IMG/VR virus record: IMGVR_UViG_3300012009_000091
Span: 103,070 to 167,069 of that record
Source: a virus
Direction: 5' to 3' (one strand)
DNA length: 64,000 nt
Shown here: in pieces, positions 6,123 through 56,035 of the stretch
How the letters are laid out: each line of letters opens with the position of its first letter
Numbering within the stretch: position 1 is the stretch's first letter
Position numbers and translations under genes: made by a program
Notes under the pieces: model-generated
Databases searched by the model: none
Told to the model about the DNA's origin: nothing
The model's input: the letters and a program-made list of their open reading frames with translations, nothing else

Positions 6123-6154
6123 GAAGACGGGAGGCCGCGCTCTCGTCTTCTTAG
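6123..6154 (+). terminator. intrinsic terminator
   Basis: GAAGACGGGAG/CTCTCGTCTTC stem followed by TTAG. Confidence 0.6.
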
Positions 6155-32889: not shown

Positions 32890-33600
32890 GGGGCTTTGAG
32901 TGTGCCTCCACACTCCCACGTGAAACTCGATTGCGCGAGGTAGGACCATCCTATCCTCTGCAGGTCAGCTTCGTGGCCGATAGCTTCCGAGTATGCTGAT
33001 GATTGACCTGATTCACAGTGTCCAATTGTGAATCGCCATCAGCCGAAATGGGCGTGGCCAGCCCTCATGCAGTAAATTAGTGATCCGGCTTTATTGGGCT
33101 CCGGATTACGTTCTGCATATTGTTTCGTCACTGTGGTGCCACTTTCCACAGCTGTTTCTAGGGCAAGCTTCATCACTAGCTTGCAAGGATGCCTGACAGT
33201 GGACTACTGTCAGACTTTCAGAAGGCTTCTCATCTCATTACTAGAAGCAGGCTAGACTCCGTTCATGTAGACAAGTCGCATCTGTCCTTCTGATAGATCC
33301 GGTGATGTCGACTCTATTCAGAAGGCTCTACACTTCTATAAAGACGGGGGGTTAGTCATCCCCCCGGATGTTGCATCTGGGATGCCTCCCATAAACCTTG
33401 TAGGAAGTCCTACAAAGCTTACGGGAGGCACGCCCCCTTTCGGGGGCGCCTCCTTCTTCCTCATGCCCCAAAGGGGCATCTTGTGCAGCGGTGTCAGAAG
33501 CGCCTTACTGCTTCTGGCCTACTGCTTTGGGACAGCGACCTTTGTTCCGCCTCCCTGGGTGCGTAACCACCCGTCCCCCGTTTTAACGGGGGAGTTTGCC
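32890..33600. ncRNA. long hairpin-dense non-coding tract A (candidate large structured RNA)
   Basis: about 18 consecutive stems, no credible ORF; 22-bp stem at 33383-33430 has 3 G-U pairs on minus; GAAA loop on minus at 33431-33448. Confidence 0.6.
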
Positions 33601-33907: not shown

Positions 33908-34007
33908 GTTCCTCCCGAACATGAGTTTCGTCCCTCACGCGGAACGGCGGATCGGGCGTATTATAGGGCCGCCCAATCTTCTACCCTCTGCGGCATAGCC
34001 GCATATA

Positions 34008-34103
34008 TGCAAGCCCTGGGAATCGAACCCAGGCGACGTTTGTCGCGTCCTTGGCTTGCGGTATGGGATATTGAGTCCCATCAATGCAACTGGGCAGGTC
34101 TGC
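34008..34103 (-). tRNA. tRNA-like element (non-canonical or pseudo-tRNA)
   Basis: T-arm CTGGG-TTCGATT-CCCAG and 7-bp acceptor GCAAGCC/GGCTTGC-A; no normal D-arm; upstream TGGGA-CTCAATA-TCCCA hairpin (CAA). Confidence 0.45.
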
Positions 34104-34423
34104 ATATTCCTTCTACTAGGCCTTGGGAGTGGGGTGGCGCTTTTCACAGCCTCTCGTGACCATATGGTCAACCGCCTGCTCCGTACCGTTCGATTACTCA
34201 ACACGACACGCTACTTTCGTGTTGAGGGCAACTTTTTCTGACGGGGTATTGCCAAGGTCCCCCATTACGCACCCACACCAAGTTACCCCCATTTTCGCTC
34301 AGGATTTCTCTGAACTTAGGGCCCTGGGCCTTTTGGCCTATACTTGTCTTCAGCTGTTAGGGATAGCTGTTAACCAGGGTTGATGGGATGGTTATACTTG
34401 CCGCCGAATATAGTCGGCGGCGG

Positions 34424-35587
34424 CTATGTTGGGTCGACGGCGATGACCGTCCCCAGCTTCATAGCCGGGGAATGGGTCATCGCCACCGTCGCCCCCACCC
34501 CTGGCTGGTAACAGGCCAGCCACGGCGTATTGTGGTACGCCATGGCTAGACTGATCGTCAGCCAATTGGGGCCTCGTCCACTTAGGACGATCCCCATTCC
34601 CGGCTGCACAGCCGGGGGGGTGACGTCGTTCAGATCGTCGACGGAGAATACTCCGCCGACGATCTCAAACGTGACGACGGCGAACTCGTCCCTCTCCTCA
34701 ACGGAGAAGGACAAGTTCGCCCCAGAGCCTTCAGATGAAGGCTCTTGACACCCGATTGGGACTGTGCCCAATCGGGGGTCGTTCACGCTTGCGGCTGCCG
34801 GGTGGCAGCCGTGAACGACGGACAGACCCAACCACGCGGGGCTGGGTCCGTCAAAAACGACGTGGTCGTCGGCCCCGAAGCCCCACCCACGGAGGGTGGT
34901 GTCGATTTTGGGAAGGTCTGTGCCTTCCCAATTGATCGACGAAACCACCCTGCCGTTGGGCAGGGTCTTCGTTATCGGAGCTTTTCCCAGCAGCTCTGAG
35001 AGCTGCTGGGTGGTGATGGTGGTGTCCATCGCCGTCTCCAGTGTCCCGGCGCTGAAATCGCACCGGGACAAGACCCGCTGGGCCAGTCTTTGCATTACTG
35101 GCCCAGCGTTGACCGTTCCCCGGTGAAGCCCGACAACCGTCCCCTCTAGAGGGTGGGTGTCGGGGGAGACGGTCTCCTCTCCGGCTAGCCGGCTTTTTAG
35201 GAGGGCTATACACCGTAGCCCGAGGTCTTCCCCAAAACGCCGCCACTCGTCCATAGCTTCGTCTTTTGACGAAAGTACTACGAACGCGTCACAACGCTTG
35301 AAAATTTCCTCGTTCTGTGGTGTAATTCGTCCCCCCACATCGACCAGTGTCAGAGGTAGGCCGACATTCTCCAATCCTGTCAGGACATAGTCCATGAATG
35401 AATTGGAAAAGTCGCCCTTACGTCTGATACGCTGGACGAGTTCTTGGGGGGCCGAATTGGCCCACGTACCTTCCCCGTCCGGACAAGCCCGGAACAAGAA
35501 GGTACCTTCCCGTGGAAGCAATTGCTTCAGGGAAGCGAAAAACACCGACTTTCCGGAATGAGGAGGACCGCAGATGATTACTTTCAT
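34424..35587 (-). CDS. csx3: P-loop NTPase fused to two Csx3/Crn3 (CRISPR ring nuclease-like) domains
   Basis: GPPHSGKS, ACPDGEG.W, LVDVGG; Csx3 motifs HGCHPAA...DPRLG and GIVLSGRGPNWL...YH..PWLACY.P..G..V..THS. Confidence 0.8.
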   Translation of the reverse strand: MKVIICGPPHSGKSVFFASLKQLLPREGTFLFRACPDGEGTWANSAPQELVQRIRRKGDFSNSFMDYVLTGLENVGLPLTLVDVGGRITPQNEEIFKRCDAFVVLSSKDEAMDEWRRFGEDLGLRCIALLKSRLAGEETVSPDTHPLEGTVVGLHRGTVNAGPVMQRLAQRVLSRCDFSAGTLETAMDTTITTQQLSELLGKAPITKTLPNGRVVSSINWEGTDLPKIDTTLRGWGFGADDHVVFDGPSPAWLGLSVVHGCHPAAASVNDPRLGTVPIGCQEPSSEGSGANLSFSVEERDEFAVVTFEIVGGVFSVDDLNDVTPPAVQPGMGIVLSGRGPNWLTISLAMAYHNTPWLACYQPGVGATVAMTHSPAMKLGTVIAVDPT

Positions 35588-35589
35588 CC

Positions 35590-36485
35590 TACTCCTCTCA
35601 CCAGAGAGTCATTTGCGCTCTACTCTTTCTGCTTGCACCCTACTGCAAGTGGAAATTTCAAGCTCCTGGGAAGACCTCCCAGTCGGGCAATTGACGAAAA
35701 TTGTTTTTACGTGACGCTCGTCAATTTGGTGCGTCACTATAAATACGCGGTTCTCGCCGCGTAAATAAAAATGGTTTAGCATCTGGTCAGGTAGGAAAGA
35801 CCAGGGATCATCAGGAAGATGATCTCCGCAAAGGACTTGCGGACCGTGCCCCGAGGATCGGGGTCTTTACAGAACTCATCCAGCATGTTGCATGCTGGGC
35901 AACCTACAAGGCGGACCGGGTTCTGATTCCAGTCCGACAGGAGTGCATTACGCTGCACAAACGACCACCATAACCTGGCAGTGGAGTCCGGAAATTCGCT
36001 TCCGGAACGGGTGGATCTTACCGAGTAACCACCATCTCGGCCCATGTTTAATGCTATTGGGGTGCAGGGACCTCTACGCGAGGTTGGCGGTGTAGATTTA
36101 GCTCTACACGAACTGATACTTGGTATTTTAGTCTGTAGTACCTTCAGACTATCCAGCTATGGCACTGGATGGCCAACAATCTAAGCCTGATTGCCCAAGG
36201 CAGCTCTTACCCAGAACTTGGGGAGTTCATACCCAGAACTCATAGGGCCTCCCATTGTAAAGGCGGGGTTGGTGCGCCTGCTCGTATAACTCCCTGAGCA
36301 AGGGGTTGGCACTTGGTAATCTGCCTTAGTGCCAGAGGCAGTTCATAACCCTGAACGGGGGCCTCCCATTGTAAAGGCGGGGTTGGTGCGCCTGGGGAAT
36401 ATTCGTGTGCCGAAGGGTGCGCGGTTGGGATCGGTGTTCTCCTTTTGGAGCCGATGTGCGCAAGTGGCACGTGGTAAGTTCCCTT
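35590..36485. ncRNA. long hairpin-dense non-coding tract C (candidate large structured RNA or leader)
   Basis: more than 20 short stems, pseudoknot, 36-nt repeat pair; GTATAAG promoter at 36491 on minus. Confidence 0.6.
36245..36394. repeat. perfect 36-nt direct repeat x2
   Basis: GGGCCTCCCATTGTAAAGGCGGGGTTGGTGCGCCTG at 36245-36280 and 36359-36394. Confidence 0.95.
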
Positions 36486-52456: not shown

Positions 52457-52658
52457 GTTTCCTCCGTTTCTCTAATTACTTATACAGGATACTAAAAAAC
52501 GGGTGATTTCGTTCCCTTCATTGCGTATCCTTGATTCCGGTTCGACTCTCGAACTCTCCTCACAACTCTTGAGTTGGTTTTGGCAACAAGAGTCCTCACG
52601 GACTTCTTAATACCCTTGACGGGTCAACGGGAATCACCCGCTCGATCTCTCAACTGTC

Positions 52659-52957: not shown

Positions 52958-53578
52958 ATGAAGCTCATAATTTACACTGATGGAAGTTGCTACCCAAACC
53001 CCGGGCCTGGTGGAGGGTGGGGTGCAGTGATAACCACGCCTGATCATGCTATTTTGGCCTGTGGTCGAACTGCATCCGGATTCGGCTCAGTGATGATGCC
53101 GATGAAAGATGACCCAACTCCACGAATGCTCACCACCAATAATCGGCAAGAATTGATGGGCATCTTGATGGCGCTGAGACTGTTAGAGGCAGAAGGTCAT
53201 CATATCTGGGTTTGGTCGGATTCAGAATGGGCCGTCAATTCGATTTCTGGGAAATATCGATCCAACAAAAACAAGGATCTGCTCGACCAAATTCGGATGG
53301 AAATCAAGCGATTAGGTACAGCTCATTGTAAATTTCGTCATATCAAAGGACATGCAGGTCACCCACTTAATGAGCTGGCTGATAGGTTGGCTGGAAAAGG
53401 GCTACAAGCGGTAGACAGTCTCAAGATTGAGGACGGTAGGTGGCTAGATGATGAACATCAGAGGTTAATAGAAGTCGTTGGTTTTCTTCCCCAAGATATT
53501 TCGGATGGAGGAGGATCTTCGCGAGCCTCCTCCACCCTAGTGACATACCATCACACACTTCGGATCAGTTTTCGTTAG
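52958..53578 (+). CDS. rnhA: ribonuclease HI
   Basis: IYTDGSC..NPGPGG, TNNRQEL, SDSEW, HIKGHAGHPLNELADRLA. Confidence 0.92.
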   Translation: MKLIIYTDGSCYPNPGPGGGWGAVITTPDHAILACGRTASGFGSVMMPMKDDPTPRMLTTNNRQELMGILMALRLLEAEGHHIWVWSDSEWAVNSISGKYRSNKNKDLLDQIRMEIKRLGTAHCKFRHIKGHAGHPLNELADRLAGKGLQAVDSLKIEDGRWLDDEHQRLIEVVGFLPQDISDGGGSSRASSTLVTYHHTLRISFR

Positions 53579-54339
53579 TCGTAGTCGTCTCGGGAGGTAT
53601 AGACCTCCCGAGCGACATTGATCTCGTCTTTTTGGAAGCCTGCTTGTTTTAGCTCTCGCGGAAGATTGACGTGTCCGTACTCATCGATGGACAGATTGAT
53701 CTCAGTTGCGGCGATGTCTGTTCTCGGATTGGCTACACGTACTTTCAGCGACTTTCTTGTATCGTCTAGGACGACAAGGGCGCGATCATCTTCTTTGGCT
53801 GCATGTGGAATCCCTCTTTTTAGTCCTCTCTCGTTCATCATACGCATGACCAGTGTCGCTGTATCTGCAGAGCGGTATCTTGTTCTCATCTTCTGTAGAA
53901 GTGTTTGGATTTCATGCCACCGTTCCAGGCCGTCTTTTTTGGTGAGTAGGGCGTCCAGCGTGTCGATGACCAATAGATCGTAGGATTTTCTTTGTGCAGC
54001 GCGGAGAGCTCTCTCCATCCCGTCCAGATCAATCGTTCGGGCTACGTTGATGGTGCTCAAATTCAAATCCGCGCGGCGCATGAGTTCGAGATCCAACATG
54101 ACGGTAGCGATGATCCCGATTGTCTGATGGCGCTGTTGCGCTGTTCGCAGTGCAGCGAGGAGGAGCCGTTCTGGATCACTCCCCGCGGCAAAGTAAATGG
54201 TCGTGATTTGTCCTCTGAGATACCCTCCGTTTAGTGCTGTGTCCAAGGCGACGCTTCCTGTCTGAAAGTAGCTTGGCTTAGCGCGTTTGGTTTTTCTCCA
54301 CCTTTTAGCTTCTTCGGCTTGACGTCGGAGCGACTTCAT
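53575..54339 (-). CDS. degenerate RecA-like protein
   Basis: TGSVALDTALNGGYLRGQITTIY...DLLVIDTLDAL; Walker A lost (AAGSDPER). Confidence 0.75.
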   Translation of the reverse strand: MKSLRRQAEEAKRWRKTKRAKPSYFQTGSVALDTALNGGYLRGQITTIYFAAGSDPERLLLAALRTAQQRHQTIGIIATVMLDLELMRRADLNLSTINVARTIDLDGMERALRAAQRKSYDLLVIDTLDALLTKKDGLERWHEIQTLLQKMRTRYRSADTATLVMRMMNERGLKRGIPHAAKEDDRALVVLDDTRKSLKVRVANPRTDIAATEINLSIDEYGHVNLPRELKQAGFQKDEINVAREVYTSRDDYD

Positions 54340-54863
54340 AAGTCTTCCTCCTCGAATCCATATTCAAACAATGCTTGACGCAGCTTTCGGTTCTCTAGGT
54401 CCAACTGCTTATTACGCGCAAGGAGCTCAGCGATCTTCTTTGATGCTGTGGCGTGTGAGACAGAATCGATGTGACATATTGGACAGGGCGTGTCTGCTTT
54501 CTGTCGGTCATACCAGACCAAATTACACCAGCCTTCGTCGGCATCTATGAGCATGTATTCCCGGTCCATTAAAGCAAGTGTGTCTGCAATAAAGTACAGC
54601 CAAGATTCGTTTTCGCCAATGCGATCTACTAGTGCATCTGTGATAATGTCTGGGGTCATGTTCAATACATCATCGAGCTGTTGTTCGATCCCCGTAGCAA
54701 TCCGATGTAGGATGGAGATCAGTTTCTTGCGTGAGATCTTCTCCGGTTCTTTTTGTAACAGGCGAATAAGGCTTTTTAGCCGACGGAGTTCGGATCCCTC
54801 ATGGTTCAAATCGCTCGAGATCTGCTTTAGCACCTCCCGCGCGAAGTCTGTGGTCGATATCAT
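54336..54863 (-). CDS. hypothetical protein
   Basis: GTATAAG at 54891 and RBS AAGGAGG. Confidence 0.7.
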   Translation of the reverse strand: MISTTDFAREVLKQISSDLNHEGSELRRLKSLIRLLQKEPEKISRKKLISILHRIATGIEQQLDDVLNMTPDIITDALVDRIGENESWLYFIADTLALMDREYMLIDADEGWCNLVWYDRQKADTPCPICHIDSVSHATASKKIAELLARNKQLDLENRKLRQALFEYGFEEEDL

Positions 54864-54900
54864 AGCAACCTCCTTCGTATTTGTTGTGCTCTTATACAGG

Positions 54901-55310
54901 CTAAAAACGACGCCACTGGACCGTCACGGTGTTGTGTTCGCCCGGTCCCGGCTCCTCCAGTAACCGGAGGAGATGAGACCGGTTACTATTGCAACCGGGG
55001 TCGGCATTCACGTGAGCTCTCCCTCCCCCCGAATGGGGTTGTCCACTCACCACCATGGGCGTCATTTCTTGTGACAATTCTGTACGGTGTACACCAGCCC
55101 CGCGTTAGCGGGTGCTTCACCTTAGCTGGTGCTACCTCTCCGAGCGTACTTCAGTCTAGGGAGCTGTGGACGTTTCCGTCCGGTCCCCATTACCTTTCCT
55201 ACTAGGTACGGAAGGTCTGACTCCGTACAGGTTTGCAAGATCGAACGCTCACGACACGACACTTCGCAGTGCAACTCCCGGATTACGGTATCTGGAAGTT
55301 TTCGATCTCT
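54901..55310 (-). ncRNA. candidate ~410-nt structured ncRNA
   Basis: promoter motif at 55317-55323, TTTTTAG end, GNRA-capped and nested stems. Confidence 0.6.
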
Positions 55311-55705
55311 CATTTACTTATACCTACGAGATTCAACACTTTCCCGACTCTCCTGGACATGCGACTGCTGTGGGTTTCTTCAAGTCCGGCGGCTAGAGCT
55401 CGAGCTTCTAGATCGAGGATTGAATCGCCGAACTCGATCAGGAATTCTTCGGGTCCGATGATCTCTCCAGTATTCTCGCTCTCTAGTTGTCTTTGTGTGC
55501 GCACTTGGTCTATCCTGAGTTGGTACTGGACTAGTGTCCGTACGATTCGTGCTGCAACAAGGTCCGGTAGGACAGACAACGCAGTCGGACATGCGATGAG
55601 CGCATCTCCCACGAGTTGACGAGTGAATACCTCTTGTTTGATCTCCTGGCCGTAGTTCTTGTTGGCGCGATTCATCACATACTGTTTCAAATCGTCTTTC
55701 GTCAT
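55310..55705 (-). CDS. hypothetical protein
   Basis: RBS CAGGAG before MTKDDL. Confidence 0.6.
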   Translation of the reverse strand: MTKDDLKQYVMNRANKNYGQEIKQEVFTRQLVGDALIACPTALSVLPDLVAARIVRTLVQYQLRIDQVRTQRQLESENTGEIIGPEEFLIEFGDSILDLEARALAAGLEETHSSRMSRRVGKVLNLVGISK

Positions 55706-55732
55706 TCCCTTCTCCTGTGGTAGGTTGTGAAT

Positions 55733-56035
55733 ATGGACGCTTCCTTCTTCCAAGATCCGACCATTCGTGATTTCATCGCTCGTGACATTCAACAAGCGGG
55801 CGATGAAGCCACGATGGTCAAGAGTGCAGGTTTTCTCGGCCCAGCTTTGATGGTCGGTGGTTTGGGCGGTCTCTTATACGCCGGAGCGAAAGGGCTCAAG
55901 GGGGTGCGTAAAGCATCTCCTCCTGGTCAGCGCTGGCGTCAGCTTCGTCGTCGAGCGCTTGTGACGGGCCACCCAAGAGCTGGACGTCCACCAACTCCCA
56001 AGGCTGACCCCACTTTGTCTCCAAGGCGGATCTAA
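55733..56035 (+). CDS. small putative virion protein
   Basis: MVKSA then a Gly-rich hydrophobic segment; overlaps the tail of a convergent ORF. Confidence 0.5.
   Translation: MDASFFQDPTIRDFIARDIQQAGDEATMVKSAGFLGPALMVGGLGGLLYAGAKGLKGVRKASPPGQRWRQLRRRALVTGHPRAGRPPTPKADPTLSPRRI

Follow-up and report, generated by a model that had tools for sequence, protein, structure and literature searches.

RNase P RNA, the group I and group II introns, OLE, GOLLD and ROOL have each led to new biochemistry or to a new RNA architecture, and structured RNAs of several hundred nucleotides (nt) that lack a relative in Rfam are rare. The pRNA of the small phi29-like phages, approximately 174 nt long, works within a protein machine. 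GOLLD, ROOL and OLE, together with raiA, are large "ornate" RNAs of bacteria and phages that have no known function and have been the subject of work by cryogenic electron microscopy (cryo-EM; bioRxiv 10.1101/2024.12.08.627333). A screen that requires clusters of intergenic regions has provided viral candidate structured RNAs, with highlighted examples of about 76–86 nt (Fremin et al., 2023; PMC10690425). Here, we describe an element of approximately 408 nt on the minus strand of a 64,000-nt stretch of viral DNA, at positions 54903–55311, for which 17 helices arranged in three domains are predicted. This stretch is referred to as the window, and its numbering is used throughout. It corresponds to bases 103070–167069 of IMG/VR record IMGVR_UViG_3300012009_000091 (167,069 bp, with direct terminal repeats), and contigs identical to it are present in microbial-mat metagenomes.

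In an earlier note made from the sequence alone, the locus was read as a stand-alone non-coding RNA (ncRNA) gene with its own promoter and terminator. The comparative evidence presented here indicates that the locus is very probably a real structured ncRNA of a new family. The best overall explanation, which we consider likely, is a new structured ncRNA gene of about 408 nt in a rare clade of large uncultured phages, with a product that may act in trans. Confidence is high for a structured ncRNA, moderate for an independent transcript and low for any specific function.

Structure and conservation of the RNA element

Folded as minus-strand RNA, the element reaches a minimum free energy of -172 kcal/mol with a z score of -4.43, none of 100 shuffled sequences folding as well, while the plus strand gives z = -2.51. 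In the comparative fold the domains follow one another, and no helix pairs the two ends of the RNA. Domain 1 (55235–55311, minus strand) is a four-way junction made of the closing helix H1 and of H2, H3 and H4. Domain 2 (55080–55230, minus strand) is the conserved core. It is closed by H5, which retains an A-A mismatch, and contains H6, which surrounds H7 and H8 (the latter extended by H9), followed by H10 with H11. The variable domain 3 (54903–55069, minus strand) has two long-range closing helices, H12 and H13, and two branches, H14 with H15 and H16 with H17.

Homologues were reached through the near-orphan proteins encoded beside the RNA, which led to two further lineages. One of these (L002/L003), from one JGI metagenome and one Logan assembly, encodes neighbouring proteins of 161, 175 and 212 amino acids (aa) that are 84, 71 and 70% identical to those of the window. 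The other (L010/L012/L013/L014) is represented by four assemblies, in which a RecA-like protein carrying the DUF7125 label is 59% identical and the 175-aa protein only 35% identical. The order of the RNA, the 175-aa gene and the DUF7125 gene is kept in all three lineages, even at 35% protein identity. Since the L010-type contigs start just upstream of domain 2, comparison with L010 covers domains 2 and 3 only, and the covariation set consists of three distinct sequences, one of them truncated at its 5' end. L010, L012 and L014, which are independent assemblies (ENA, Logan and JGI), begin at the same base, while L013 begins 40 nt further in; this common start suggests that the contigs break at the boundary of a repeat, in a hypervariable segment or at the end of the genome.

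The element is otherwise scarce. Nothing beyond chance matches came from a blastn search of 50,697 phage records, from IMG/VR scans anchored on the three neighbouring proteins, on the helicase and on a RecA-like alignment, or from four scans with DNA patterns through viral, metagenome and genome collections. L005–L009 and L015 were rejected as homologues, being chance matches as judged by blastn, covariance model or coding context. One copy was found in IMG/VR, the element is present once in the genome, and the Logan contigs from the source sample do not differ from the window and thus supply no variants.

The RNAs of the window and L002 share 81% nucleotide identity and are offset by indels of 1, 2 and 25 nt; nucleotide identity of the flanking genes is 84% (the upstream open reading frame, ORF), 70% and 73%. 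A joint consensus fold of the two sequences contains 126 pairs in the 17 helices, none of which is broken in either sequence; both partners have changed in nine pairs, and a single partner, with wobble pairing still allowed, in 18. In controls in which the 3' partners were slid by 1–3 columns, just 37–44% of cells pair. H1 and H2 each carry one two-sided change and several wobble-compatible ones, and the 25-nt insertion of L002 lies at the tip of H15. Because the joint fold was derived from the same two sequences, a non-circular test was also run, in which one sequence was folded alone and the fate of the other's substitutions was scored. With the fold of the window alone, 29 pairs were kept and 13 broken on the minus strand, against 18 and 15 on the plus strand; with that of L002 alone, the counts were 27 and 7 on the minus strand and 17 and 19 on the plus strand. 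Approximately 23 pairs of the joint fold are G-U in at least one sequence, and these, together with the strand preference of the kept-pair test, argue that the RNA is read from the minus strand.

All motifs and inverted repeats quoted in the earlier note are found on the minus strand where it had placed them, including GTATAAG at 55323–55317 and a T-run followed by AG at 54907–54901, and its central proposal of a structured minus-strand RNA is borne out by covariation in two independent homologues and by the non-circular strand test. Its supporting details fared less uniformly. Seven of its nine helices are fully paired in L002, several through compensatory changes, while the helix 54998–54991/54986–54979 is broken at four of eight positions there and the hairpin 54972–54966/54958–54952 keeps just five of seven pairs. 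The substitutions there are better explained by a single long hairpin, H17. Likewise, the note had invoked GNRA loops and G-U pairs as an argument for the minus strand; the strand and the G-U part of the argument hold up, but the loops are not conserved. The GAAA loop of H9 becomes CAAA in L002, which is no longer a GNRA loop, H9 is absent from L010, and the loop of H3 differs in both sequence and length in L002.

Domain 2 provides the widest comparison. A covariance model of this domain (R1), built from the window and L002 only, matches L010:21–149 at 17.9 bits with an expectation value (E) of 0.0065. Five of the ten H5 pairs are re-coded in L010 and still paired, with the internal A-A mismatch kept, while H8 is a short hairpin that lacks the H9 extension and H10 is reduced to a simple hairpin, the 12-nt bulge and H11 being missing. 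Across the three distinct sequences, 15 of 48 pairs have changed on both sides and 95% of cells pair, compared with 34–49% in slid controls, in an alignment that was fitted to the model and so leans towards it. Several unpaired bases do not vary: the three after H5 (55219–55217), the H7 loop (55203–55196) and the 14-nt junction between H8 and H6 (55156–55143) are the same in all three lineages, as are the sequences of the H8 5' strand (55188–55185) and the H6 3' strand, and position 55133 is a further conserved unpaired base of this domain. Domain 3 of L010 is approximately 70 nt shorter and keeps its two long-range closing helices with different sequences. The peripheral hairpins H9, H11, H15 and H17 lengthen, shorten or disappear from one relative to the next.

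This structure has no counterpart among described families. A cmscan of the whole window with 4227 Rfam 15 families returned nothing at gathering scores, and nothing meaningful appeared at E values up to 10 for the locus, for each domain alone or for the homologous contigs L002 and L012. The covariance models of GOLLD, ROOL, OLE, HEARO, raiA and pRNA gave no match, and ARAGORN detected no tRNA or transfer-messenger RNA (tmRNA) in the window. Detectable membership of the group I and group II introns, RNase P RNA, tmRNA, GOLLD, ROOL, OLE and pRNA is therefore excluded. Of the two database checks proposed in the earlier note, the Rfam scan thus yielded no family and the homologue search yielded two further lineages with conserved structure. 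Its remark that hallmarks of tmRNA and RNase P were missing agrees with the Rfam and ARAGORN results.

Several likenesses were considered and rejected. For RNase P RNA, there is no Rfam match to the bacterial A and B or the archaeal forms, and no P1-like helix joins the 5' and 3' ends; for tmRNA, both ARAGORN and Rfam are negative. Short stretches resemble by eye the conserved regions of RNase P or the sarcin-ricin loop of 23S rRNA, but no model of rRNA or of RNase P gives a score, and the resembling stretch forms part of the paired helix H6. The four-way junction of domain 1 is not tRNA-like: ARAGORN is negative, and the arm lengths and missing linkers do not fit.

Putative transcription signals and genomic setting

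Two copies of the heptamer GTATAAG frame the element. The first, P1 (55317–55323, minus strand), lies within the last codons of the upstream ORF and is identical in L002 (1220–1226). It ends 6 nt ahead of the first base of H1, and transcription is predicted to start about 7 nt downstream, at the position where this helix has its first pair. The second, P2 (54891–54897, minus strand), is a candidate promoter for the downstream two-gene operon; it stands 5 nt past a run of five U and 27 nt ahead of the ribosome-binding site (RBS) of the next gene, and is found at the same relative place in L002 (1675) and L010 (262), 22–30 nt before the RBS across all three lineages.

GTATAAG is enriched in this phage. 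The window contains 19 copies, at 6154, 8890, 12728, 14818, 30466, 36497, 36817, 39506, 40886, 49925, 51036, 52485, 52890, 52926, 54897, 55323, 55879, 56571 and 59307, where 3.0 are expected (approximately sixfold), and 28 of the 32 copies in the genome fall in the 90–162 kb interval. The copies almost always have the orientation of the genes around them. At 15 of these 32 sites, the next 60 nt contain an RBS and the beginning of an ORF that is 50 aa or longer, as compared to 6% of random positions (p = 1.7e-10). In L010, six copies occur in 7 kb at the same positions relative to genes. The heptamer is thus over-represented, co-oriented with genes, placed closely before an RBS and start codon, and conserved in relatives, as is looked for in a promoter class, and this pattern suggests a phage-specific promoter element. 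The promoter proposed in the earlier note finds its support here, as a promoter-like motif. The last T of the sigma-70 -10 hexamer is almost invariant, and the G that GTATAAG carries at that position would imply recognition specific to the phage. No sigma-70 site with -35 and -10 hexamers at a spacing of 16–18 nt was found in 54300–56000.

At the other end of the element, the run of five U (54903–54907, minus strand) is a possible termination point. It directly follows the 3' strand of H12, an arrangement that is the same in L002: the 6-bp GC-rich part of H12 (54914–54909) is followed by one G and then by the five U, and in place of a short loop the stem encloses a domain of 170 nt. Cassettes of a U-run followed by a promoter motif recur in this genome and in L010. 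A terminator at this place is plausible only, with an atypical, long-range stem. Since copies of this gene-oriented motif, which often precedes an RBS and an ORF, lie directly before and after it, the element looks like its own, self-contained transcription unit.

The same motif also occurs in other contexts. Four copies in the window (36497, 30466 and 49925 on the minus strand and 8890 on the plus strand) have no RBS and ORF within about 110 nt, and other ORF-free tracts that follow the motif in this genome had been pointed out in the earlier note; several copies of this kind may drive other non-coding transcripts. Just before a GTATAAG copy, a block of about 50 nt with a terminal U-run is conserved at the nucleotide level between the window (52497–52545, minus strand) and L010:2636–2690 (plus strand). 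This conservation is higher than protein identities of 35–59% would predict, and the block might encode a small RNA, act as a terminator or belong to the end of a small ORF.

The locus occupies a 446-nt gap in a block of minus-strand genes, among genes for replication and recombination, with an RNase H gene 1.3 kb away. Upstream of it lies the 161-aa ORF (55310–55795, minus strand), whose stop codon overlaps the start of the RNA; it has no known family, and an exhaustive HMMER search of 1.84 billion representatives returned its own cluster alone. Downstream lies the 175-aa ORF (54336–54863, minus strand), a helical protein with a coiled-coil C-terminus that follows the RNA in all three lineages. 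Neither protein obtained a usable family from Pfam, PHROGs or the protein atlas, and an AlphaFold2 model of the 175-aa protein from a three-sequence alignment had a predicted local distance difference test score of 46, too poor for a fold search. The next gene encodes the 254-aa RecA-like protein (53575–54339, minus strand; Pfam RecA, 1.4e-06), for which the DUF7125 label is a precomputed annotation and in which the earlier note had pointed out a degenerate Walker A motif. This gene overlaps the end of the 175-aa gene by 4 nt, forming an overlapping operon with it, and belongs to the neighbourhood kept near the RNA in all lineages. The phage helicase is only 33% identical to its best cultured relative, that of Bacillus phage SP-15, which marks the phage as a deeply novel large phage. 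Elsewhere in the window, a 387-aa protein (34424–35587, minus strand) has a clear Csx3 domain match in two stretches (2.6e-25). The earlier note had described ORF-free structured tracts in that region (32890–33600, 33930–34420 and 35590–36485), and no copy of the present RNA is detected there with its domain-2 model.

Competing explanations and a proposed mode of action

The main rival to a trans-acting RNA gene is that the RNA is a cis-acting leader, that is, the 5' part of a read-through transcript that controls the operon of the 175-aa and DUF7125 genes, either through a terminator that responds to a ligand or protein or through processive antitermination of the HK022 put type. The constant order of RNA, 175-aa gene and DUF7125 gene in three lineages would suit such a leader, as would the position of the closing stem H12 and U-run as the last structural element, the formation of which could be regulated, and the non-canonical terminator, which is weaker in L010. 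This explanation is weakened by the separate promoter motif that each of the three lineages has between RNA and operon, given that with this copy the operon would not need the upstream transcript. Moreover, no alternative anti-terminator pairing is conserved, no riboswitch is matched in Rfam, and with 408 nt and 17 helices the RNA is far above the size of known leaders of the HK022 put or responsive-terminator type. We regard a cis-acting leader as unlikely. A self-splicing or self-cleaving element between the two genes, such as a group I or group II intron, another large ribozyme or a mobile RNA, is very unlikely, although size and nested multi-domain architecture recall the small group I introns that are often borne by phages. 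The group I model (RF00028) has no match at E values up to 10 on the locus, on single domains, on L002 or on L012, and no gene is interrupted, which argues against an intron: the upstream ORF ends at a stop codon that L002 shares, and the downstream gene is equipped with a promoter motif, RBS and ATG of its own. The best Rfam score anywhere on the locus is a weak match to group II domain V/VI (RF00029; 54994–55050), with 15.6 bits against a gathering score of 40 and E = 0.6. The hairpin responsible is the one extended by 25 nt in L002, an insertion that would not be tolerated in a domain V, and the 5' end of the RNA is unlike the group II consensus GUGYG. These results count against introns and leave room for self-cleavage as such.

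Two further explanations concern the DNA or a protein product rather than a ncRNA. A DNA-level or transcript-end element could take the form of a replication origin or primer RNA, a packaging site, or the structured 3' untranslated region and terminator of the upstream gene. The replication and recombination neighbourhood with its RNase H gene would be in keeping with it, and P1 lies inside the end of the upstream ORF, so that read-through from that ORF would also yield the RNA. Yet the 23 or so G-U pairs would turn into A-C mismatches in DNA hairpins or if the opposite strand were read, the kept-pair test is asymmetric between strands, and a plain terminator would not be expected to combine conserved junction bases with hairpins of variable length. 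Neither an AT-rich unwinding stretch nor a local change in GC skew is present, and no iterons were seen, though no repeat search was made. Such an element is very unlikely as well. The probability that the product is a peptide is negligible. Two short ORFs do exist in the gap, of 63 aa (55122–55313) and 58 aa (54901–55077), but neither has an RBS, and the ATG of the 63-aa ORF is only 4 nt past the promoter motif. A 2-nt deletion and further indels in L002 (1, 2 and 25 nt in all) shift the frames, no equivalent ORF is found there, no reading frame in the element is conserved, and the substitutions are compensatory in helices rather than synonymous. One condition under which the earlier note would have withdrawn its proposal, that the 63-aa ORF is the product, thus finds no support in the comparison.

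Some observations weigh against a trans-acting RNA gene. The consensus terminator scan called no terminator on the minus strand, and a gap of 5 nt separates U-run and stem in L010, so that read-through into the downstream operon is possible; the terminator claimed in the earlier note is a plausible one only. Among public sequencing runs, none holding the locus is listed as an RNA run. The consensus structures come from, or were fitted to, the very sequences that they describe, and with just three distinct sequences, one of them 5'-truncated, covariation cannot be given a proper phylogeny-aware significance. Finally, the neighbours are all without known families, which leaves the partner proteins as candidates only.

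With these points considered, the following model of a trans-acting RNA can be proposed, in which we infer transcription, transcript ends, action in trans and a protein partner. Transcription would be started by the phage-specific element GTATAAG at about position 55310, where H1 begins, and the transcript would fold end to end into the three domains and probably stop at the five-U run after the long-range closing stem of domain 3. The second copy of the promoter element would then drive the next operon independently. The product would be a stable RNA, made alongside the replication and recombination genes with which it shares its promoter-motif class. Domain 2 would be its functional core, with fixed junction and loop bases and with helices kept by covariation. 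RNAs that offer a partner a fixed three-dimensional site typically combine an invariant core with varying peripheral hairpins, and the present RNA may accordingly bind one or more proteins as a scaffold or decoy, with the always-adjacent 175-aa coiled-coil protein and the RecA-like DUF7125 protein as candidate partners. The invariant junction core, covarying helices, variable periphery, shared promoter class and fixed two-gene operon favour a trans-acting, protein-binding RNA over other modes of action, but this specific mechanism is put forward tentatively and we place it well short of even probability. A bolder version, which we think rather improbable, is that the domain-2 core is the active site of a new class of large phage RNA, either a ribozyme or an RNA that forms a ribonucleoprotein with the coiled-coil protein and a putatively ATPase-dead DUF7125 protein, acting in phage DNA replication or recombination or against host defence.

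Significance and relation to known RNAs

The RNA is compact enough for chemical probing and cryo-EM, and as a clearly bounded gene with a conserved core and a variable periphery it offers a ready-made mutational map. Its fixed neighbourhood with two uncharacterised proteins provides potential partners. In the three lineages that represent it so far, it indicates that large uncultured mat phages can carry dedicated RNA genes under what is, by motif, a phage-specific promoter class.

Several known systems invite comparison. Rad, the anti-retron factor of T5-like phages, was considered as an analogue and set aside, as Rad is a protein and not an RNA. The phage group I introns have a similar length of about 400 nt, nested domains and a phage location, whereas the present RNA matches no group I model, interrupts no gene and has a promoter motif directly upstream. 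Like the intergenic phage motifs of Fremin et al. (2023; PMC10690425), most of which are without a known function, it is supported by covariation; unlike the examples highlighted there, to which this comparison is limited, it is about 408 nt long and has three domains. The phi29 pRNA is likewise a stand-alone, phage-encoded, structured RNA with its own promoter (here a promoter-like motif), and the mechanism proposed for the present RNA is of the same kind as the role of pRNA in a protein machine. It differs from pRNA in having no Rfam match and in that its neighbours are not packaging genes.

The closest resemblance is to GOLLD, ROOL, OLE and raiA. These RNAs also extend over several hundred nucleotides with many helices, several domains, conserved junctions and variable peripheral hairpins, form units of their own, often on phage or prophage DNA, and share with the present RNA the lack of a known biochemical function. 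At the same time, their covariance models do not match it, it is smaller than GOLLD, ROOL and OLE, it does not lie beside tRNA genes, and its known members come from three phage lineages only. Taken together, the RNA is new by all available tests, yet in general character it belongs with the large structured orphan RNAs that bacteria and phages encode.
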